This document shows positions 2,943 to 59,846 of a stretch of DNA of 64,000 nt, piece after piece. The translations under genes and the position numbers were made by a program. The first letter of the stretch is position 1, and every line of letters starts with the position of its first letter. The notes under the pieces were generated by a model. The model did not search any database and was not told where the DNA came from. It saw only the letters and a program-made list of their open reading frames with translations. The DNA is from a virus (lineage: Duplodnaviria > Heunggongvirae > Uroviricota > Caudoviricetes): the IMG/VR virus record IMGVR_UViG_3300001357_000001, positions 64,001 through 128,000 of that record; one strand, written 5' to 3'.

Positions 2943-3113
2943 AATAATATGGTATGTGATAATATTAACTATCGTTATAATACTTATACGAATAAAATGT
3001 AAAAATGTTACAAAAAAAAGGGTAGAGGAAATTTTCCATCATACCCTTTTCTTAGTTATTAACCCTGATTTAAACGAATAACTTTTATACGAATAAAAAG
3101 TAAATATGTTACA

Positions 3114-7854: not shown

Positions 7855-8736
7855 CTATTGATATTCTAACATGTATTCAAGTACTTTGCTGTCGGTTTCT
7901 CTGCGTTTTTCAGGTGCAGCAATGTTTCTGCTATCATCGTGAATATAACGATTAATAGCATTGTAAATCAACCAGTTATTTACCTTACCATTATAACCCA
8001 GACCAACATTATTGGCTTCAGAAGTAATGGTATTCATAATATCATTCATAGTGTTGAACTTAGAGTTTTCAATCATAGAAATCTTACAAGCCTTAAGAAC
8101 TTCTTCAATACGGGCTTCAGGGTTAGTTCTCCATTGTTTTCCAAGTTCTTCATATTTACCTACGATTGAAGTCTTAACGTCATCAATGTTTTCTAATACC
8201 TTTACTAAGATATTGCTAAACTCTTCAAGTGAATGAAGGATTGAACTAGTATGTTTACCTTGAACAACAAGGTTATACTCTTCCATTTCTTCAATAGGAA
8301 CAACAAGTCCGTTAGAACATACTAAACGATAAAACCCTGCAATACCTTTGTATTTAGTTAAACCGTTATAACTGTGTTGAAAGTTCCATATGAACTTAAT
8401 AACGTCATTAGTACCTGCCATTTTATATGAAAATCTAGGGTCTTCAATGGTATAACTACCATAAAAACGTGCGTTATTAGTGTGACTGTAAACAACACTA
8501 AAAGCAATATTATGGTCGTTTAGAATTTCTTCTACCTTTGGAAATATCATTTCGTTAGGAACAAGTTCGTAACGTGGTGAACAGTAGTTTAAATCCATTT
8601 CTTCACCATCTACAATACCTCTAACTATCTTAGAGTATTCTTGATTGGTTTTGTTTGGATTGTCAATTAACTCAACTGGAAAACATAGCTCATCTAATGT
8701 GCAAAATGTAGTTCCTTTTTTTTCTGTAGTTGTCAT
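7855..8736 (-). CDS. DUF932-family protein
   Basis: GFYRLVCSNGLVV signature. Confidence 0.75.
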   Translation of the reverse strand: MTTTEKKGTTFCTLDELCFPVELIDNPNKTNQEYSKIVRGIVDGEEMDLNYCSPRYELVPNEMIFPKVEEILNDHNIAFSVVYSHTNNARFYGSYTIEDPRFSYKMAGTNDVIKFIWNFQHSYNGLTKYKGIAGFYRLVCSNGLVVPIEEMEEYNLVVQGKHTSSILHSLEEFSNILVKVLENIDDVKTSIVGKYEELGKQWRTNPEARIEEVLKACKISMIENSKFNTMNDIMNTITSEANNVGLGYNGKVNNWLIYNAINRYIHDDSRNIAAPEKRRETDSKVLEYMLEYQ

Positions 8737-8873: not shown

Positions 8874-11800
8874 TTATTTATATTTTTCGTCCACGGCTGA
8901 CTTAAATGCTTCATCACTACCGTACATTAATAATTTCTTATGATATACTTGAACAAAGCCAGTTCCTGCTCTTGTGTAATAATTACCTCTGTCATCTACA
9001 AGTATATCGGTTTTATTTTTCTTCATGAACTTAATAATTTCTTTATCAACTTTCTCAGGAACAGGCATACTGGTGTCATGTTCAATTCCTAATTCATCAA
9101 AAGGAATTATATCGGGCTTGTCTCCTTGTCTTGTTCTGAACTTTATGGTGAAGTGACCATAAGGTCTGAGTTTGTGATAGTGTTCTGTCTTTGTTAAGTC
9201 AAATGTTAAGCTGTTCATTTTGTTTGTGTTTTGGTTTAGTTATTATACGAACATTCTTATCTCGATGTTACAGTTATTAACTGAAATAAACCATTAATTC
9301 TGTTTCAGGATTTAAGTCAATAACCATCTTCATCTTATCAATAAGTAGTTCACGGTTACCATTAGAAGTCGCATAATTTAGGTTAATTCTAATGTCTTCG
9401 ATTGTAGTGGCAAGTGTGTCATCACTACCGAATTTAAACCATAATCCAAGTTCGTCATCTGTACATTCAATTTCTTTTCTATGAATGTTTTCAATACGTT
9501 TCAATCTCTCGATAAGGTTCTGTACATTCCCGTTCTTCAGGAATTCGAACATTGCTTCTTCACAACTGTATCTGTATTGGATTAAATTTTTCATTGGTTT
9601 GTGTTTTGGTTTAGTTATTATACGAACATTCTTATCTCGATGTTACAAAATTATTTAGTTTTCCAAAATAAATCTTCCATTGCATCTAAATAAGAATTAA
9701 TCTTATTCCATTCCTTAACTGTTACTCTCTCACAATTAGTTAAACCATATCTATCTAAAAGTTCATAAGTATTAAATTTTCTATCTAAATGGATTTCATT
9801 AGGTTTAGTAACATGACGTGTATCATCAGTATTATTGCAAAACAATACAACACTTTCAACATCCATACGGACTTCACCATCTTTATTAATTGTTAGGTTA
9901 GATACTTTATAATAATAGTGTTGGTCTAATCCGAATTTACCACGATAATAACCACCATTCTCATTAAGGTCTTTAATGAATGCTAGTTTCTTTTTATTAT
10001 GTTCTTCGAATTCTTTTTGGTCTTCAAGTTTTTCTTGTTCTTGAATTTCAAGTAATTCTTTACCTGTTTTATCAGGATGTAATTGAATTAAATATTCTAA
10101 TGATTTCATTGGTTTGTGTTTTGGTTTAGTTATTATACGTACATTCTTATCTCGATGTTACAAATTAAAGTAATTAATTAACCTCTCAATTTCATGGCTT
10201 TTTAAAACATATGCTTTATAGTTCCATCTAAAATGCCCATATCCCAATGATTTGTCAGGTTGTTTTAATTTCTTTGTACCATTAAAACATATTCTTCTTA
10301 ACATAGGTTCAACATTAATCGCATCACCTTTATATATCATATGTACAATTTTATCTGCTAATGCTATAAGGGCATGAGATTGATTATTTATTAATCCAGT
10401 AATATCCCAATTGATTAAATCTTTATAAGATATAATAGCAAATTTTTTTGATTTCTTTTCAATTTTTAATATACTTTCATCAAGTACAGGGAGTTCATTT
10501 TCAATCTGCTTAGTTATTGATTTTAAATGATTCCAGTATGAAGATAAAAACTGAATATTATTTCCTATGAAATTCATATCTTAATAGATTAGGATTAAAA
10601 ATAATTTGATGTTCGTTATTTAAAACAAATTTCGGAAAACAATTTGGATAGTCTCTAACCCATTTATCCAAATATCTAATATCAATAAATCTTAAATCAT
10701 CAAAGGGTTTAAGAGTATTAGATATTTTATTTAATATTGTAGTCCAGAGTATCATAATAACGAACAATATTTTTCGGTTAGAATAGTCTTAATTTTATTA
10801 TATTTTTTTCTTGTATCTTTACCTTTAGGGCAAGAGGTAGATATTTCAGATATTTTCTCACCTGTTGTTGTGCATAATAAACCAATTGAGTTTGGTGTTG
10901 ATGCTAATCCCGTATAAAATATTATATAATTCATAATTGTTTTGGTTTGTGTACATTATATTATACGAAGAAACCCTGTAAAGGTTACAGGGTTTTTAAT
11001 TAAAATGGTTACAAAAAAACCCCGAACATTTAGTACAGGGGTGAAAAACTTTGATGTTTTTACTTCCGGTTCTTCTTAACAGTATGTTGCTTCCCTAACA
11101 AGTTGTTTAATACGATTTTTTTCTTTTGTTTTTGAACAGGAAAAACGATTCTTTTTATCTGCAAGTTGTTTTTCAGTTGGTTTAAATCTGTTTGTACGTG
11201 CCATAATAAATTGGTTTTGATTTACAATTATTTATTTTTGTATTGGTATTATATGTTTTTCACAATCAATACACCAAAAATCCTCTTCATCACTCATATT
11301 AAAAAATTCAATATCGGGTTTTTTACCATTTAAGTCCACCCATGCTTTGCCCTGTACATTAGTACTCTTACATATTGGACATTGATAAATTATTTCTTCC
11401 ATGATTTATTGTGTTTTGATTTAATTATTATACGTAAATTAAACTGTAATTGTTACAATTCATTATACCATTTAATAAATTTAACTACTCTGTTATAGAT
11501 ACCTTCAATATCATTGTTTAATATTTCTGATAACATATAATCAGGATGAAATATTTCAGTTTCCCAATGGATATATAATTCGTCATCATACTGAAAATCA
11601 TTTGTCTTATCAGTACATTCTTTGACAACAGGCATTAACCAATCCCAAGATAAATGAAATTTTAGTGATGCAATACAAGTTTCCATTGGTATTGAACCAC
11701 TTTTTAACTTAACTTTATAACCATCAGATTTATCTTTAATTGGATATTTTTCAAATCCCATAAACTCTGCTATGAGTTTATTATTCTCGTTTATATTTTT

Positions 11801-14290: not shown

Positions 14291-15004
14291 CTAAATATTA
14301 GCATTGTTCAATGTTCTTACATCTTTTAATTCTTCTTGTAATTTTGCTCTACATCTGTTTATCATTCCTTTAACCGTTCCCATCTTTAAGTTAAGCATTG
14401 TACTTATTTCCTTATAAGTCATCTCTTTAACAAAAAATAGTTCTGCTATCTGCTTATATTTAGGTTTTAAATTACTTAAAGCCGTATTAATACTATTACT
14501 TAATTCATCATTTTCAATACCGTCATTAGTACTATCATCAACAAATTGGAATATTTCTTTACCATCATCATCAACAAAACTATTTACATTCACGTACTTA
14601 TCGCTGTGATTAGTTCTATAATGGTCAGTTATCATAGATTTGGCAATAACGTGTAAATAAGTACTTATTTTAGCTTGATATACATCGTATTTTTCAAAGT
14701 TCTTATGTAGCTTAATAAATACCTTTGCCGTTATATCCTCGGCTTCAGTCATATTTTTTACCCAACCGTTAACATAATATAATATTTGCTTGTAATTCTT
14801 ATTATATACTTGTTCAAAAGTCTGGTTATCTTTGCCGTTTTTGGCTATACTCCAAGACTTTCTTAAACAATTACTAAAACTTTCATCAACTCTTTCATTC
14901 ACAGGTATTTGATAGAATAATTTCCATGCTCTGCTCATAATTAAAGACATCATTTTCCTATCAAATTTCTTTACTAAATTGTTCTTTTTTGTGGTGCGTT
15001 TCAT
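14291..15004 (-). CDS. ECF-type (sigma70 group 4) RNA polymerase sigma factor
   Basis: Region 2 (AEDITAKVFIKL...ISTYLHVIAKSMITDHYR) and region 4 HTH (LKPKYKQIAELFFVKEMTYKEISTMLNLKMGTVKGMINRCR); start taken at ATG 15004. Confidence 0.9.
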   Translation of the reverse strand: MKRTTKKNNLVKKFDRKMMSLIMSRAWKLFYQIPVNERVDESFSNCLRKSWSIAKNGKDNQTFEQVYNKNYKQILYYVNGWVKNMTEAEDITAKVFIKLHKNFEKYDVYQAKISTYLHVIAKSMITDHYRTNHSDKYVNVNSFVDDDGKEIFQFVDDSTNDGIENDELSNSINTALSNLKPKYKQIAELFFVKEMTYKEISTMLNLKMGTVKGMINRCRAKLQEELKDVRTLNNANI

Positions 15005-26704: not shown

Positions 26705-27764
26705 ATGCTTTGGTTGTAATTTGGCAAATTTCTACTTTACCAATAAAATCATCTAATTTTTTTGCATCAGAATAACTCATTGCATTTCGTAAATAATGAT
26801 TAAAATTATCAACCCAACCACTAAGACGAAATTCAACTTTTCGATATCTAACCACGCCTTCGGATGTTTTAAATCTAGTTTTACCCATTGCTTTTTGAGC
26901 ACCTTTAGTACTCATACCTCTAAAATATTTTTTTACTGGTAAACCTAAGTTAAATAAGAATTTTGCTATTCTTCTATTTACTCTCACACCATATAAATAG
27001 TTTTTAGCACAACTTTCTAATGATTTATTAAAAATACTCCCAATCATAACATAATCTGCACCAAGTGCAAGTGCTTTAATAATGTCAGAATGGTCTTTCA
27101 TTCCACCATCAGCAACAATTGCTGGTGCTTTAAACTGTTTATTAGTTCGATTATCATATATGTATAATAATTTTTCTTGAAAAATATTATGTATTAATGA
27201 TGCCATTGGGTAACCTACTCCTGACTGTTTAGTTGTTAAACATCCACCACCATTACCAATTCCTACACGAATATAATCAACGTCAGTATTTTCAGCATAC
27301 CATCTATAGGTTTCGGGATTAGCAATATTACCAATCATCAATACTATATCTGGACGCAATCGTTTAATTTCACGACAATAATCAAATAGTTTTTGCATAT
27401 GACCATTAGCTACATCAATTAAAATATGTGCTCTTTCATGTATATTACGTAAACTTGTTTTAAGTTCTTTATCTAAATCATTAAAACCCATACTAACAAA
27501 AACACCATTATCAGATTTACTACCTGATAAAATTTCCTTACTAACAAATTGTCCGTATTTAATTGTTCTGGGTAATGCTATGTTAATTCCTTGATTAAGG
27601 AATGTTTTCATATTTTTTAAATCAACAACACTATCCATTGGTGCTGTAAATAATGGTAATTTTTTATTAAGGTCAATTCCTTTATATCTACTTGATATAT
27701 GTGTTTTATATTTAGGAACGATTAATATGTCATCAAAATCAAATTGTGGTTTTAAATCTTTCAT
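26685..27764 (-). CDS. guaC: GMP reductase / IMPDH-family protein
   Basis: FDDILIVP, APMDSV, IDVANGH, RVGIGNGGGCLT, ADGG, GADYVMIG, RGMST, SEGV; no CBS domain. Confidence 0.85.
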   Translation of the reverse strand: MKDLKPQFDFDDILIVPKYKTHISSRYKGIDLNKKLPLFTAPMDSVVDLKNMKTFLNQGINIALPRTIKYGQFVSKEILSGSKSDNGVFVSMGFNDLDKELKTSLRNIHERAHILIDVANGHMQKLFDYCREIKRLRPDIVLMIGNIANPETYRWYAENTDVDYIRVGIGNGGGCLTTKQSGVGYPMASLIHNIFQEKLLYIYDNRTNKQFKAPAIVADGGMKDHSDIIKALALGADYVMIGSIFNKSLESCAKNYLYGVRVNRRIAKFLFNLGLPVKKYFRGMSTKGAQKAMGKTRFKTSEGVVRYRKVEFRLSGWVDNFNHYLRNAMSYSDAKKLDDFIGKVEICQITTKAYDRFNK

Positions 27765-30963: not shown

Positions 30964-31128
30964 ATGAAAGATATTGAATTAACAGCCATGTTTGAACCTT
31001 GTAAAGAGGGCGGATTTATGGCATACATACAAGAAATCCAAGGCATAAATAGTCAGGGAGAAACAATAGAAGAAGCAAAAGAAAACCTTACAGATGCAAT
31101 TAACTTGATGTTTGAAGAATTTAGTTAG
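30964..31128 (+). CDS. hicB: HicB-family antitoxin-like protein (54 aa, not in ORF track)
   Basis: MKDIELTAMFEPCKEGGFMAYIQEIQGINSQGETIEEAKENLTDAINLMFEEFS; GTATTTAT motif upstream. Confidence 0.75.
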   Translation: MKDIELTAMFEPCKEGGFMAYIQEIQGINSQGETIEEAKENLTDAINLMFEEFS

Positions 31129-34136: not shown

Positions 34137-34643
34137 TTAGTTTAATAATAAATCACAAATTTTTTCTACTTTCGTTTTCAAGACTTCCAAAGTACTATTA
34201 TTTGGAACGATAATATCACTTGATTTCCATAAATCAATGTTAAATGAATCTTTCGGTTCTAATGGTTTACGTTCATCATAAACACCAATTATTAAATCAA
34301 AAACACCGTCATTAATACATTTTTGGATTTCATCTTGACTTCGCATTCCAACATACATGTCGTTGTATTTTAATATTTCCTTTGCTAGTCTTGCTTTATC
34401 TGGTATATTATATTCACAAATTAAATCATGCCATTCGGCACGATGATTCATACGGTCTTCGAAACATTCAATAAATGAATTATAACCATATTTATCTTTT
34501 AATTCATCATATATAAATATTTCTGCTGCCATTTCAGATGAACTTTTAAATGACATACCTGTAAATTCTTCAATCATTTCAGCAACAGTATCTTTACCAT
34601 GTCGCATATGACCAATAATTAATATTTTTTTGTTGTTTTTCAT
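34137..34643 (-). CDS. Deoxynucleoside monophosphate kinase-like P-loop protein
   Basis: IIGHMRHGKDT P-loop variant; GMR..DE. Confidence 0.7.
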   Translation of the reverse strand: MKNNKKILIIGHMRHGKDTVAEMIEEFTGMSFKSSSEMAAEIFIYDELKDKYGYNSFIECFEDRMNHRAEWHDLICEYNIPDKARLAKEILKYNDMYVGMRSQDEIQKCINDGVFDLIIGVYDERKPLEPKDSFNIDLWKSSDIIVPNNSTLEVLKTKVEKICDLLLN

Positions 34644-34649
34644 TTTAAT

Positions 34650-35774
34650 CTATTTTTTACGGTGTACCCAAATAGGTTCTGCATATATGCCAACAGTACC
34701 AAACGATTTACTCATGGGTCGTTTAGGCATCCTTAATCCCATTGCACCTTGATATTCAAAATCTCCAGTACTTGCAATATAATCATTCATTCCATCACAA
34801 ATTTTATAATGTTTTTTTCTTGTATATATATCACTTACATTAATAACCAAATGACCACCAGACTTTAAATTAGCTGTTCTTAATTCAATTGTTTTAAATA
34901 AAAACTTTTCCATCCAATCATCAAATTTTTTATACATTTTATATGATTGTAATGGACTCTGATTATATTTTTCTTTATCAAAATATGGTGGTGAAGTAAA
35001 GATTAAATCAAACTCATCTTCTAATTGAATATCAGGTTCTTCTGCACACCAAGGATGTAATTTGAACTTCATCGGCACACCTATTTTTTGATAATATTTT
35101 ATTTGTTCAATATATCCTTTATATAAATCATGATTAGGGTCGAAGCCAACATATTTTTTCACATATTTACTTGCATGTGCACCAAGTATTCTATCACCCC
35201 AACCCATACTAAAATCTAATACGGTTTCTGCTTTGAAATAATCATATATTGCTTTAGCAGCACTAGGTCTAAATTGTGCAGCAATATACTTTCTAAGCGA
35301 TATTATGTTTCTAAGGACAGTTGGGTTAATTTCTTTTACATTATGGCTAAAAAGTGCCTTAAATAGCGTTAAACGAAATCTTTCATTATCCCATGTTTTT
35401 TGTGCTGATGGATATCCAGTTGCGTCACATTTCCATCTTTCTTCTTGATGAAAATAATCACTGGCTTTATTTCCCACATTTGATATTCCAACATACTTGT
35501 CTTGAAAACCATATTTATAATCAAACTTCGTTCCCCACTTACCTTCTTGAATTAAATCATTTTTATTACACAATGCTTCATATTCTGCTTGTACATCATC
35601 TAAAGTAAATTCTTTATATGGTAATTCTATATCAAAATCAACAATAGCATCAGAAATTTGTTTTATAATAAATTCTTGTGAATAATTATTTACAATATCA
35701 GACCAATTGTCTTCGGTTACGAATAATTGTTTACCAATTACAAAATCTGCAAATATATTATTCATATTATCCAA
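34650..35774 (-). CDS. SAM-dependent DNA amino-methyltransferase
   Basis: VLDFSMGWGDR (motif I) and FTSPPYF (motif IV). Confidence 0.8.
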   Translation of the reverse strand: MDNMNNIFADFVIGKQLFVTEDNWSDIVNNYSQEFIIKQISDAIVDFDIELPYKEFTLDDVQAEYEALCNKNDLIQEGKWGTKFDYKYGFQDKYVGISNVGNKASDYFHQEERWKCDATGYPSAQKTWDNERFRLTLFKALFSHNVKEINPTVLRNIISLRKYIAAQFRPSAAKAIYDYFKAETVLDFSMGWGDRILGAHASKYVKKYVGFDPNHDLYKGYIEQIKYYQKIGVPMKFKLHPWCAEEPDIQLEDEFDLIFTSPPYFDKEKYNQSPLQSYKMYKKFDDWMEKFLFKTIELRTANLKSGGHLVINVSDIYTRKKHYKICDGMNDYIASTGDFEYQGAMGLRMPKRPMSKSFGTVGIYAEPIWVHRKK

Positions 35775-38027: not shown

Positions 38028-38792
38028 TTATTTTAATTTGATATTTACCCATTTTTTTTCTGTTTTTATATCAGAAATAGTACTTTGAGCAACTTTAAAT
38101 TTTTTTGCGATATCTTTCTGAAAACAACCATTATTTATCATATTTTTTATTTCAATAACATCTTCAGTTCTTAATTTTTTCACGACATTTCCAGAAGCAT
38201 AATTATGTCTTGCATTTTCTGTATGATTAAGCCATTCTAAATTAGATTCACGATTATCAGATTTAATTCCATTAATGTGATTAACTTCTAATTTTAGATT
38301 TACATTATCTTTAAATGTCATAGCAACTAATCTATGAACCCTATTAATTTTTGATTTGTGGTTCTTTGTTAAATTAATTACTAAATAATCTCTTGAAAAA
38401 TATTGTTTCATTATTAAATCTTTACTATTCTTTACTCTCCCATAATTAGAGACATAATATAAATCATCATAATCAGGAATTGATTTCCAAATTTCACCAG
38501 ATAGATTTTTTGATTTTAAATTTAAATAAATTTTTCTTGCACTATTTTTATAATCCTGTTTATCTCTTTCATTTTTAATATCGTTAAAATTAACATTAAC
38601 TTCTTTTAAAGGAATAAAACCATCAGAATTAACTTCTTTCACGTCACCAAAATAAGGAACATGTTCAATATATGGTTGTTGAAAATTGAATTTAATGAAA
38701 ATGAATTCACCTTTACACCATTGTGCAATATTAGTATTTCTACATGTACCAATATAATATACGTTTTCTTTTAATTTAAATTTTTCTATCAT
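38028..38792 (-). CDS. NUMOD4-HNH homing endonuclease with extra N-terminal domain
   Basis: EIWKSIPDYDDLYYVSNYGRVK; VHRLVAMTF...VNHINGIKSDNRESNLEW..H..N. Confidence 0.9.
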   Translation of the reverse strand: MIEKFKLKENVYYIGTCRNTNIAQWCKGEFIFIKFNFQQPYIEHVPYFGDVKEVNSDGFIPLKEVNVNFNDIKNERDKQDYKNSARKIYLNLKSKNLSGEIWKSIPDYDDLYYVSNYGRVKNSKDLIMKQYFSRDYLVINLTKNHKSKINRVHRLVAMTFKDNVNLKLEVNHINGIKSDNRESNLEWLNHTENARHNYASGNVVKKLRTEDVIEIKNMINNGCFQKDIAKKFKVAQSTISDIKTEKKWVNIKLK

Positions 38793-38888: not shown

Positions 38889-39155
38889 TTAATTAATTTT
38901 AAGATTAATTTTTTCCATTAATTGTTTTGTTACTTCATCAGTAATTTCTCTTTTTAGAGATTTTGAACCGAAATAAGAATCATTCATTACAATTCTATTT
39001 ACGATTGTTTTTACATCGAAAGAATCGAATTCGTTTTTTACCATTCTTTCTGCTTGTTCTTTTACTGCATCTTCAATCCATTGGCGAATATCTTCTTTAG
39101 ATATACCAAGTTCATTATGCATGTAGTTTTTAAACATTAACCATTTGTTTTCCAT
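38889..39155 (-). CDS. Hypothetical protein
   Basis: 88-aa ATG ORF. Confidence 0.55.
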   Translation of the reverse strand: MENKWLMFKNYMHNELGISKEDIRQWIEDAVKEQAERMVKNEFDSFDVKTIVNRIVMNDSYFGSKSLKREITDEVTKQLMEKINLKIN

Positions 39156-39475
39156 AATGCTAAATTTAGTTTATTAGTTATTTTTCTTAACTCTGGAGTA
39201 CCATAATAGCAAATAGCAGTCAATTGGTTGTCGATGTCAGGTTCATAAAAAGGAACGACATCAGCACCATTGTCTAACAATTTGTAATAAAGTCTTTGAA
39301 GTTTTTCTTCATTATCGATTGATAATGAAATGAGATAATTGCTATCTTTTTTCCACTGTTTGAATTTAGTGGGGAAATCATGTGCGAATTCGGCAATTGA
39401 ATGACCCGATTGAACGAGTTGTTGACCTGCCGATAAGTCTTTTCTTGTAATTGTTACTAATTTAATCTAAGTCAT
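39137..39475 (-). CDS. Peptidyl-tRNA hydrolase (Pth2-like) with in-frame TAG at codon 3 (missed by ORF track)
   Basis: ATG ACT TAG ATT AAA... then open for 110 codons: IKLVTITRKDLSAGQQLVQSGHSIAEF...FYEPDIDNQLTAICY; promoter 39515-39544. Confidence 0.75.
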
Positions 39476-39726
39476 AATACTAATTTTTAGTTTATTATAA
39501 ATACGTGTCATTTTATTATACGACAAAGGTAAGAAAATGTTACAGAAAAACAACTATTTTTTCTTTTTTTGTTGTAAATCTTCAACAAATTCAATCATTT
39601 TATTTAAAGTGTCATTAGAACCTTCCATGTATTTAGTTGGTGAACAAGAATTTTGTTCACAATATTTATTATTTAAATCCTTTCTTCGATTTAATTCATT
39701 TAGAATTTTTTGAAGTTTTTTCATAA

Positions 39727-41471
39727 TTATTTTTCTCTTAATGTTTCATATATTTTCCTTTCCATTTCAATTCTAATTAAAGTACGATTCATATGGTCTT
39801 CATGAGTAGTAATTGAAGGTTCAACATGAGCGACTCCTTTAATCATTTCAACAGCATTTTTTATTACTTCGAAGTCATCAATTCGATAATCACCATCAAG
39901 TGTTACTGTAAATCCTTTTACCCTGTTTGTCATAATTAATCTAATTTAAATTCAGTAATTACTTTTTTTTCTTTTGGTGTCACAATATTGCCTTTTATTA
40001 TTAGATAAGAATTTTCACCCCAATAATTAGTATCATTATTAGAAGGAATTTCATCAAGGAAATAAACATCATCACCATAATCACCATCAGCAAGTTCTTT
40101 TAAAAATTTTTCTTTATCAATTGGTCTTACTGTTGTGTCACCATCACTATTATGAATTAAATAATAAATTTCTTCACTCATTTTTTTATATTTTAATTAG
40201 TATTTTATTTTATTTTGAGGGCGTGACGGGACTCGAACCCGCAACAACAATGTTTTAGAGACCTTGCGTTCTACCAAGTGAACTTCACGCCCGTTTTACT
40301 CCCTTCACCAGAGGTTGTTTCCAACAGAAGGGAGGTCTTTGTTTCCATTTGTCTCAGTCAGCGAATTCTCTCTCTTTCAACTTAGTCCGTTAATTCGGCT
40401 CGAAATTCGCAGGAATAGCGGAACATTTGCTCGTCCCGACATGTTTTGTTAAAGAACGTTACTTTGCCACCAAATCATCATTGGTCTTATATGTTGACGA
40501 TAAAATAATATTTTAGAATATGTTATTAAAAATTCAGGAAATCCTTTAGGTATACCCTTACAATTATTAACATATTCTTCATAAATATCATTAATATTTT
40601 TTTCATTCATCATCAATTCCAAATATATGTTTCCTAATTATTCTGTAATTATTAAAACTTAAACACATTGCTTTAAACATACCACTATCCTTTGCTACCT
40701 GATAAATATATTTTTCACCTTTTTTTATCGTTTTCTGTAAATCTTTGAGATTAATACGCCATTCCTTTCTTTCTTCAACACTAGTATTATCACAAATATA
40801 AACATAACCATCACAAATTCTATCAAATTGAGAAACAGGATATGTTCGTTTCAATAATTCAAAATCTTTCATCGAATATTTAATTCTTTTTCAAGTTTAA
40901 GTACTTGTTCCAATAATTCATCTTGTTTATCAATCCATATTAGTTGAGTATTTCTTTTAAATATCGCATTCCATTGTCTATTAGGATATTTTATATTACT
41001 TGCACGTTCTAATCTATCAATAAGAGAATAAAATTCATTATTTTCATATATTAATGTGTCGAGTTTATTTATTTGCATTTTAATATAAAGCAAATCTTTG
41101 TTTTCAACACCAACTAATAATTCGTCTCTAATGTCAATTAATTCTTTCATTTAGTTCATGTAAAAAATTTTTTCGTCAAATCTAAATTTAGGATTAAATG
41201 CTGTAATACAATCATTTTCATGAAGGTCATGGTCGAGAACCAGCAATACCAATTCATCAAGTTTATCACCTAATTCCCATTGGTCATTACCTCTTGCAAT
41301 AATATAACCATCATTTACATCGATTTTACTAAAAACAAAAGGCTTGTTGTCTTCATCAATTTCTCTATTAATTGTGCCATGAAAACATCGGTCAAAACCT
41401 TTATTGCCTTTACCTGCTTTCGCCATAAAAATTTCTGTAAGTCCTATTTTATTATTTTTCTTTTTTTCCAT
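39727..41471 (-). CDS. Small hypothetical genes (39727-39933, 39936-40181, 40603-40872, 40869-41150, 41151-41471)
   Basis: ATG ORFs flanking the suppressor tRNA. Confidence 0.55.
40218..40292 (-). tRNA. Amber suppressor tRNA (anticodon CTA)
   Basis: GGGCGTG/CACGCCC acceptor; CAAGGT-CT CTA AA-ACATTG; GCGGG-TTCGAGT-CCCGT. Confidence 0.75.
40297..40445 (-). ncRNA. Candidate structured RNA upstream of suppressor tRNA
   Basis: GCGAATT/GAATTCGC, TGTC/GACA, CTCCCTTC..GTTG-GAAA-CAAC..GAAGGGAG; follows boxA at 40447. Confidence 0.45.
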
Positions 41472-44528: not shown

Positions 44529-45366
44529 TTATGGTAACAATTTAAATGTTTCCATATTTTTTCTTAATTTTTCGTTTTCAGCAATAATTGCATAATCATC
44601 TGCTTTCACATATGCTTCATGCTGATTAATTGCTTTAACGTAAAAGTTTAGAACTCTACCACTCGTAAGCGTGAGTTCAACCAGCCAATATTTCATAACT
44701 GGTTTTGCTGCTTTCTTTTTTTGTTTATTCATAATCTTAGTCTAAGCAGTAAAAGACTAAGATGTATCGTTTTCTTTTTTCATAATAAATGATTTGGTAT
44801 GTCTTCTTCGCAAATAAATACGTATTTGACATTATTTTTTCGATATTGTTTAAATTTTGAAGGTAAATCATCACAAGTACCACTATATAAATGAACACAG
44901 TGGTCGTGATAATAACCAGTTGTTTTTACCATTAAACCTTCCCAAGTATTAGCATATACAGCAATTATTTTTGTCGCCATAATTACTTTAATTTTCCCTT
45001 ATTTACTCTAGGGTTATATTTTTCCCAATGTTTTCGATATTTACTTATTTGTTTATCTAAATTAATATCAAGATTATTCTCTCTACGATGTAAAGAAGTA
45101 AATATGATTCCACTCATATCATCAGCATGAAAAATGCCTTGTGAATTGAACCACGCAACGGCAGGACCGTCATGCCATAACTGTAAAGTATTTCTAATAA
45201 ATGTACCATAACCATGATGAATCATCATAGCATCGTCTTCTGGTACTGATAACCATTTTTTAAATTTTTCACTACCTTCAGTTGAACACATATGACTTTT
45301 AACCCAATCCATACATTCATCAAGATTTCTGGTTTCTTCAATATTAAATTCTAATTTATCATCCAT
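44529..45366 (-). CDS. Small genes; 44983-45366 is DUF6794-like
   Basis: HHGYGTFIRNTLQLW...GIFHADDMSGIIF. Confidence 0.55.
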
Positions 45367-46731: not shown

Positions 46732-46812
46732 AAGTGGTGGTGGGATTCGAACCCACATTTTCAGTTCCAATTACACGATATCGGTTTAGAAGACCGATGT
46801 GACTACACCACC
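46732..46812 (-). tRNA. Non-canonical tRNA-Arg(TCT): no D arm in normal position, D-loop-like segment after anticodon arm
   Basis: GGTGGTG-TAGTCAC-ATCGGT CT TCT AA ACCGAT-ATCGTGTAATTGGAACTGAAAAT-GTGGG TTCGAAT CCCAC-CACCACT. Confidence 0.7.
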
Positions 46813-51020: not shown

Positions 51021-51103
51021 CGGAGAGTAAAGGAATCGAACCCTCGCCCCGAAGGACGGCACGGATTTCAAGTCCGCTTATCCACCATTGGATGCTACTC
51101 TCC
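51021..51103 (-). tRNA. tRNA-Ser(TGA)
   Basis: GGAGAGT/ACTCTCC; GCGGA-CT TGA AA-TCCGT. Confidence 0.93.
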
Positions 51104-51191: not shown

Positions 51192-51272
51192 TGGTTGGGA
51201 GGGTGGGATTTGAACCCACGTGTGACCAGACTACACTTTCTACTGCTTATCAGGCAGAGGTGATACATCCCA
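51192..51272 (-). tRNA. Non-canonical tRNA-Ile(GAT) with a D-arm-like hairpin after the anticodon arm
   Basis: TGGGATG-TATCACC-TCTGC CT GAT AA GCAGT-AGAAA-GTGT AGTCTGGTC ACAC-GTGGG TTCAAAT CCCAC-CCTCCCA-A-CCA. Confidence 0.7.
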
Positions 51273-59590: not shown

Positions 59591-59663
59591 TGGGGATGGT
59601 AGGACTCGAACCCCCGACTCTCGCATTAAAGGTGCGATACTCTACCAACTGAGTTACGAACGC
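59591..59663 (-). pseudogene. Chimeric tRNA: Lys-like 5' part joined at the T loop to the 3' end of another tRNA
   Basis: 5' GCGTTCG does not pair with 3' CATCCCC; T stem GGGGG/CCTAC mispairs; loop CCTTTAA. Confidence 0.6.
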
Positions 59664-59760: not shown

Positions 59761-59846
59761 TGGTCACCAAACGGGACTCGAACCCGTGCGCAGGGATTAA
59801 GAATAGCAAATGCGTTCCCTTGCTCTGCCAACTGAGCTACTGATGC
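59761..59846 (-). tRNA. tRNA-Lys(CTT) with 12-nt insertion in anticodon loop
   Basis: AGGGA-[ACGCATTTGCTA]-TT CTT AA-TCCCT; normal D and T arms; encoded CCA. Confidence 0.7.

Follow-up and report, generated by a model that had tools for sequence, protein, structure and literature searches.

The window analyzed here is a stretch of 64,000 nucleotides (nt), positions 64,001 to 128,000 of the IMG/VR virus record IMGVR_UViG_3300001357_000001 (Caudoviricetes). On its minus strand it carries a gene (pth2) whose predicted product has the fold of Pth2-type peptidyl-tRNA hydrolases and whose third codon is an in-frame amber stop, together with a transfer RNA (tRNA) gene with the anticodon CUA. Comparison with related phages suggests, with a probability that we put at about 0.65, that the two genes form a two-part cassette in which the Pth2-fold gene is closed by UAG at codon 3 and opened by the amber-suppressor tRNA. 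The idea that Pth is made only through amber read-through had been raised in an earlier, sequence-only reading of this DNA. Support for it now comes from the conservation of the stop, from the linkage of suppressor tRNAs to pth2 on the same strand, from a purine following the stop in 56 of 57 leaders, and from two independent switches in which TAG became TAA and the anticodon CUA became UUA.

The pth2 frame begins with ATG ACT TAG ATT AAA TTA and closes with TAA at 39139-39137. This confirmed the sequence-only description of an ATG-ACT-TAG leader running into an open Pth2 frame, with 109 open codons following the stop. The same reading had found no alternative ATG, and the nearest ATG, GTG or TTG lies 62 codons beyond the TAG, inside the Pth2 domain. 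An early-stop leader without a nearby start was unique to pth2 in the window and in each of the related genomes that were checked; together with its conservation in relatives, this rules out a chance origin of the leader. In proteobacterial phages the Shine-Dalgarno spacing suits the leader ATG.

The tRNA with the anticodon CUA, which the sequence-only reading had also placed near pth2 and on its strand, was found by both ARAGORN and Rfam 742 nt upstream of the pth2 ATG. Its cloverleaf has a 7-nt anticodon loop (CU-CUA-AA) with U33 and a purine at position 37, one G.A mismatch in the anticodon stem and U as the discriminator base; CCA is not encoded. An initiator-type amber tRNA was considered and rejected, as the molecule has a G1-C72 pair and its anticodon stem is without three G-C pairs. 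No clear parent, from which its amino-acid identity could be read, emerged when it was compared pairwise with 226 phage tRNAs.

The match to the Pth2 family was borderline for the single window sequence and clear for a profile of 32 relatives. The Pfam model PTH2 (PF01981) matched the window protein with an E value of 7.5e-5 and 23.4 bits against a cut-off of 23, the match beginning at the residue directly after the TAG. Searched against the PDB, the profile recovered Pth2 of M. jannaschii (2zv3; E value 3e-7) as well as 24bt, 1wn2 and human Bit1 (1q7s), and in the profile alignment Met1 of archaeal Pth2 corresponds to the Ile or Val that follows the leader stop. Structure prediction confirmed the Pth2 fold: the AlphaFold2 model of the product had a predicted local distance difference test score (pLDDT) of 94.4 and a predicted template modeling score (pTM) of 0.87. 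The 13 best Foldseek matches to it were all Pth2-type chains (2zv3, 3erj, 1wn2, 1q7s, 1xty and 1rlk; probability 1.00; template modeling (TM) scores 0.67-0.81), with TM scores of 0.75-0.81 for the best chain of each Pth2 entry and with archaeal and human Pth2 as the best matches. Across the 32 Pth2-like sequences, 13 alignment columns are invariant, E75 and T83 are conserved and P76-D77 is nearly invariant.

The early stop stands at the equivalent place in more than 100 independent assemblies and cultured-phage genomes, and the frame downstream of it is open and strongly conserved. The closest tblastn matches in a phage collection were uncultured phages of 462-735 kb, and the five of these that were read have the leaders MT*I, MNN*I, MKN*I, MK*I and MS*I (the asterisk marking the stop), each followed by the Pth2 domain. 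Comparable leaders occur in a 65% identical IMG/VR relative (G001; MK*V), in the uncultured 595-kb phage LR756511 (MTH*V), in Tenacibaculum phage pT24 (MK*I), in Pectobacterium phage CBB and Cronobacter phage GAP32 (both MAQ*N), in Xanthomonas phage XbC2 and Erwinia phage Kaldavass (both MAH*N), and in Acinetobacter phage ME3 (MT*I), where the 12 nt ATG ACT TAG ATT are identical to those of the window. In ten large-phage genomes that were inspected, six of uncultured and four of cultured phages, the ATG is separated from the TAG by one or two codons. In all relatives the domain continues in the zero frame straight after the stop. Additionally, a profile survey of IMG/VR returned 80 loci, 64 of them non-redundant, which were analyzed with 5-kb flanks; an early in-frame stop is present in 57 of the 64, as TAG in 55 and as TAA in two. 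Across these gated loci the leader is 1 to 22 codons long and its last sense codon varies. The sequence-only reading had proposed that a sense codon at this position in homologues would betray an error or a recent pseudogene; instead, the early stop proved to be conserved in most of them and to co-occur with suppressor tRNAs.

Database gene calls bear the trace of the same stop. Among 120 close database relatives, 50 calls are N-terminally truncated, and in 66 of the 70 that keep the N-terminus a Q stands directly before [IV]KL; in both calls that were looked up, this Q is a TAG ('with_TAG=Q'). The annotated records CBB_406, GAP32_397 and BPT24_235 start the gene internally, an annotation that the cassette would correct. 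Of the 57 leaders, 37 have A, 19 have G and one has T as the base after the stop (+4), where a purine favors suppression; true TAG terminators of related genomes are followed by A in 51 cases, by C in 17, by G in 13 and by T in 56.

Suppressor tRNAs were detected within 5 kb of pth2 in 49 of the 57 gated IMG/VR loci. All 62 of these suppressor tRNAs share the strand of pth2, at a median distance of 659 nt, and in 42 of the 54 loci having any tRNA the suppressor is the one nearest to pth2, as is tRNA-CUA in the window and in G001. In LR756500 the tRNA-CUA lies 1.1 kb from pth2, and LR756501 has two tandem copies at 2.4 kb, with the next tRNA 320 kb off. In the cultured phages the annotated suppressor tRNA is 0.45 kb from pth2 in ME3 and 2.6 kb from it in pT24, with distances of 3 kb for GAP32, 3.2 kb for Kaldavass and 3.7 kb for both CBB and XbC2. 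The pth2 gene of LR756501, a 735-kb phage, also carries, within the domain, a second TAG in frame (EFP*IYEQW; L005, ~3103-3105, genome position 688258), at a site where its relatives have D, E, T or V.

The stop and the anticodon change together. In locus L176, whose protein is 73% identical to that of the window, the leader reads ATG ACT TAA ATT and a tRNA-UUA lies about 0.8 kb upstream; because the acceptor stem and the T arm are common to both, this tRNA is the anticodon-changed orthologue of the window tRNA. A second locus, L239, likewise pairs a TAA leader with a tRNA-UUA, and its gene looks frameshifted further on. The leader stop thus switched from TAG to TAA twice independently, each time with a UUA neighbor tRNA, for a maximum-likelihood tree (80 sequences) places each of the two TAA cases within a well-supported TAG clade. 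The gated forms make up one large group in this tree, with the ungated ones outside it or near its base (midpoint rooting, used for drawing only). An apparent further case, the 'MNI-TAA' leader of Lak-B7, was rejected, as it is not conserved in Lak-A1 or Lak-C1. Altogether, the conservation of the stop, its linkage to the tRNA and the covariation of stop and anticodon favor read-through by the cassette's own tRNA.

With about 27% G+C, numerous tRNA genes, and small genes of which nearly all run on the minus strand, the window has the look of a very large phage. This phage keeps the standard code, as neither of the features of code 15, many in-frame TAGs and the loss of TAG as a terminator, was observed. 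When TAG was read as sense, the number of window open reading frames (ORFs) of at least 100 amino acids (aa) rose from 69 to 75, the TGA control giving 85, and in five related genomes there was likewise no ORF lengthening beyond the TGA control. TAG terminates 5 of the 43 homologue-backed window ORFs, with alignments extending to the C-terminus, and homology-backed in-frame TAG was almost absent in an all-against-all tblastn comparison. Global recoding of TAG was ruled out by these ORF statistics and by the TAG-terminated genes. The sequence-only reading had named three normal genes ending in TAG; those ending at 14291 and 46825 have homologue support, and ORFs ending at 7855 and 25491 can be added, while the one at 31128 was not confirmed.

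Other candidates for read-through in the window were set aside. A second amber-gated gene at 26734 was rejected because the stretch overlaps, in another frame, the last part of the gene upstream, and a fusion of ORFs 34650-35774 and 34137-34643 across a TAG is unsupported, the 374-aa methylase equaling its relative in length. In LR756500 (W04), a homologue at 394896 (minus) of the window ORF 44983-45366 (minus) has a single in-frame TAG midway along the alignment, opposite a Leu of the window protein; the homologue may be another client of the tRNA-CUA of LR756500, or else a pseudogene.

In the cassette as we propose it, ribosomes would initiate at the leader ATG, in keeping with the Shine-Dalgarno spacing of the proteobacterial phages and with a conserved promoter-like element that precedes the ATG by 30-45 nt in the clade of the window. 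With release factor 1 (RF1) alone, termination would follow after two residues and no enzyme would be made; once the cassette tRNA is expressed, matured and charged, a residue would be inserted at UAG and full-length Pth2 would be produced. The production and charging of the tRNA and the read-through of UAG are inferred here from sequence comparison. The stop lies in an unstructured tail ahead of the first strand, a place where any residue put in at UAG should be acceptable, and the abortive products would be only di- and tripeptides. The output of Pth2 would then track suppressor activity, which is the behavior of a coherent feed-forward gate.

The purpose of such a gate can be suggested only tentatively. 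It might act as a timer or as a sensor of RF1, as the sequence-only reading had proposed, but the reading that we prefer is dose coupling, by which hydrolase would be made in proportion to suppression, would clear peptidyl-tRNA, including peptidyl-tRNA(CUA), and would recycle the suppressor. A more doubtful proposal is a homeostat, in which the Pth2-like enzyme would act on the acylated or peptidyl form of its partner tRNA so that the pair sets its own level of read-through. If true, the homeostat would give a standard-code phage low, safe suppression or a timed pulse, would represent a natural orthogonal translational switch, and would explain why ungated pth2 genes are also found beside suppressor tRNAs.

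Several observations weigh against the cassette. LR756504 and LR745206 keep the leader TAG, and neither ARAGORN nor Infernal found a tRNA-CUA anywhere in these two genomes; none was found within 3 kb of pth2 in LR756502 or within 6 kb in LR756511, and eight of the 57 gated IMG/VR loci have no suppressor tRNA in their 5-kb flanks. ARAGORN misses a quarter of the window tRNAs, and odd tRNAs may go undetected, yet the gap is a genuine one. Either, then, a phage tRNA is not strictly needed in every case, or those of LR756504 and LR745206 escape detection. A tRNA of LR756504 with an 8-nt loop ('tcta') was rejected as the reader, since decoding TAGA as a quadruplet would take the ribosome out of the pth2 frame. 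The tie between enzyme and tRNA also reaches beyond gating, as ungated pth2 genes are found beside suppressor tRNAs as well: a tRNA-CUA closely follows the gene in six of the seven ungated IMG/VR loci, and in Lak-B7, Lak-A1 and Lak-C1 (L146, L161 and L162) and the 485-kb LR745208 (L157) a tRNA-UUA lies 0.14-0.7 kb from a normally started pth2.

Further points concern the enzyme, the cost of suppression and the post-stop codon. SAGQQ, without a Lys, is what the window protein has in place of the Lys-rich GKGK loop of archaeal Pth2. The catalytic residues of Pth2 we take to be the Lys of this loop and the Asp and Thr of the D..T motif, following work on S. solfataricus; as the Lys is not kept, the product is called Pth2-like and its hydrolase activity is only predicted. 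A working suppressor should be costly, given that about a tenth of the phage genes end in TAG, and read-through of the phage's own TAG-ended proteins would add 1-17 codons in most cases. Most post-stop codons encode Ile or Val (ATT, ATA, GTG) and are near-cognate starts, and the purine bias at +4 may come in part from these conserved codons. In mycobacteriophage IkeLoa the sequence is ATG TAG GTG, and a tRNA-CUA follows 250 nt downstream; here the Shine-Dalgarno spacing favors the annotated GTG over the ATG, and the GTG is probably the true start.

Some of these points would suit a start-stop leader followed by reinitiation at the adjacent near-cognate codon, a route that would yield Pth2 without any suppressor, with the leader setting a low level of expression or sensing RF1. 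The post-stop codon is ATT, ATA, ATC or GTG in many loci, the two genomes without a detectable tRNA-CUA nevertheless have the leader, and the annotated GTG of IkeLoa directly follows ATG TAG. We consider reinitiation unlikely, however, as codons that are not starts follow the stop in many leaders, namely AAT (in CBB, GAP32, XbC2 and Kaldavass), GTA (in G001 and many IMG/VR loci), GTT, AAC, ACA, AGC, GAA and GGC; ATT as a general start codon was rejected for the same reason. Reinitiation also leaves the covariation of stop and anticodon, and the second internal TAG of LR756501, unexplained.

The suppressor might instead have been acquired en route to code 15, with the TAG in pth2 merely tolerated and without regulatory meaning. 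In favor of this, suppressor tRNAs are known from standard-code relatives of recoded phages (bioRxiv 10.1101/2021.08.26.457843), and rare extra in-frame TAGs exist, in LR756501 pth2 and at 394896 in LR756500. Such incipient recoding is nonetheless improbable, because TAG occupies the same gene head across Mimasvirus, Metrivirus and the 460-735 kb phages of AT-rich hosts, because there is a single such case per genome and TAG still ends genes, and because the ORF statistics with TAG as sense are no better than the TGA control. A broken gene, or an error of sequencing or assembly at 39467-39469, can for practical purposes be dismissed: a lone in-frame stop at codon 3 does resemble a nonsense mutation, but the recurrence of the same stop in the assemblies and cultured genomes, the 13 invariant columns and the model with its pLDDT of 94 refute this explanation.

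Read-through by the cassette tRNA, which we prefer, can be set beside known systems. The gene for release factor 2, prfB, is autoregulated through an early in-frame UGA that is escaped by a +1 frameshift, so that it senses its own product. As in prfB, an early in-frame stop closes a translation-factor gene, whose synthesis would report on stop handling; unlike prfB, which uses a +1 frameshift at a slippery site and an internal Shine-Dalgarno sequence, the cassette leaves the frame unchanged and escape would need a tRNA. The bar minigenes of phage lambda, two-codon ORFs of the form AUG-NNN-stop, are the classic generators of peptidyl-tRNA drop-off and hence of Pth substrate. The window leader is a two-codon ORF as well, but it is in frame with the downstream gene, which the bar minigenes are not. 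The proposal of the sequence-only reading that the leader acts as a minigene source of Pth substrate was weakened by the relatives, as the two-codon length is not conserved among their leaders (1-22 codons).

In code-15 phages (crAss-like and Lak phages), TAG is read as Gln with the help of phage suppressor tRNAs, and in-frame stops have been proposed to delay expression until the tRNA is present (bioRxiv 10.1101/2021.08.26.457843; PMC9523058). The window phage would resemble them in that a phage tRNA-CUA overrides UAG in a standard-code host. It differs in that code-15 phages have TAG as sense in many late genes and have lost it as a terminator, whereas the window phage keeps its TAG stops and has one conserved client beside the tRNA. 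A text search of the recoding preprint (10.1101/2021.08.26.457843) gave zero occurrences of 'peptidyl-tRNA hydrolase', and no published description of a stop-gated pth gene was found in a literature search.

Standard-code jumbo phages that combine a nonsense-suppressor tRNA with Pth genes, as the window phage does, are represented by XacN1 and Atu_ph07. XacN1 has two CUA suppressors, whose targets were not identified in a study that sought only extensions beyond amber stops (PMC5852040), and Atu_ph07 has a UCA suppressor and two pth genes (PMC6102473). In XacN1 the Pth2 domain is ungated and fused to an HD-domain protein, unlike the window phage, where the target would be a stop at the gene head. 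The suppressor tRNAs of standard-code jumbo phages have been without a known client, and a gated neighbor gene of translation recycling would give them a concrete target. A synthetic 'leak dampener' follows the logic proposed for the cassette: a coherent feed-forward loop built with a suppressor tRNA is reported to abolish leaky expression in E. coli (PMC7969014). The dampener is engineered; the cassette is natural, conserved among phages and tied to one enzyme family. The cassette suggests a natural tRNA-operated gene switch, and it bears on the origin of stop-codon recoding in phages. As CBB, GAP32, ME3 and pT24 are cultured, direct testing is possible. The coordinates of the cassette and of the features around it are given in Table 1.

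Table 1. Features of the cassette and its surroundings; positions refer to the window unless another genome is named.
Feature	Position	Strand	Remarks
pth2-like gene with leader (ATG ACT TAG + 109 sense codons + TAA)	39137-39475	minus	PF01981; fold model
Leader ATG ACT	39470-39475	minus	ATG at 39475-39473
In-frame amber codon 3	39467-39469	minus	followed by ATT, so +4 is A
tRNA, anticodon CUA	40217-40292	minus	ARAGORN; Rfam tRNA model, 49.1 bits
G+C-richer non-coding stretch	40293-40480	minus	directly upstream of tRNA-CUA
Promoter-like element TTTG-N19-GTATTTATA	39496-39527	minus	kept in five relatives, ~30-45 nt before ATG
GTATTTATA sites	2056, 17024, 21798, 31528, 39496, 46690, 50027, 54525, 62653		
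Three small ORFs (81, 68 and 56 aa) between tRNA and pth2	39554-40181	minus	not conserved in relatives
Five additional, non-canonical tRNAs (Rfam)	46732-46812, 51021-51103, 51195-51272, 59591-59663, 59763-59846	minus	missed by ARAGORN
tRNA-like family of LR756504, examples	9960-10034, 10097-10171, 136123-136467, 402361-402580, 461091-461310		LR756504 positions

The sequence-only reading had also credited pth2 with its own promoter. A putative promoter is made plausible by the conserved TTTG-N19-GTATTTATA element and by the recurrence of GTATTTATA. A sigma-70-like match (GTAACA-17-TATAAT) is present at 39543-39515. The nine occurrences of GTATTTATA in the window compare with 3.3 expected, and most of them are on the coding strand, 10-70 nt ahead of a gene start; the motif is probably a phage promoter or 5'-untranslated-region signal. 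The G+C-richer stretch upstream of the tRNA is 82% conserved over 109 nt ahead of the orthologous tRNA-UUA in L176 (3985-4090). It matched no Rfam family and its fold was no better than that of shuffled sequences; possibly it is a precursor leader, or else a region with a promoter.

The small ORFs that separate the two genes are not shared with the relatives, and the core of the cassette is accordingly taken to be the pair of tRNA and pth2. The window has 15 tRNA genes according to ARAGORN and 20 according to the Rfam tRNA model, and the five extra, non-canonical ones indicate that counts from a single program are too low in such phages. LR756504 (W01) has about ten near-identical tRNA-like genes (GGC..GTTCGTCTAG.GGCT.AGGACG...) whose anticodon loops have six bases (T[AT]TTCA); ARAGORN missed several of these genes.

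Pth2 was also seen in company with an HD-domain protein. In XacN1 ORF364 (L155, 5461-6300) and in Stenotrophomonas phage CM1 (L149), the Pth2 domain is fused to the C-terminus of this protein, and LR745206 encodes the same HD protein (45% identity) as a separate gene 1 kb downstream of pth2 (L002, 3998-4573). The fusion hints, at the level of gene organization, at a joint working of HD phosphohydrolase and Pth2. The HD gene of LR745206 was considered as a second gated gene (MNT*ITFKQ) and rejected, as its alignment with XacN1 ORF364 indicates that it probably has a normal internal ATG start. In the window, the 3' end of pth2 overlaps the next ORF (38889-39155) by 19 nt, and an HNH/NUMOD4 homing-endonuclease-like gene (38028-38792, minus) lies just downstream of the cassette, a position at which it is also found in 14 related loci.

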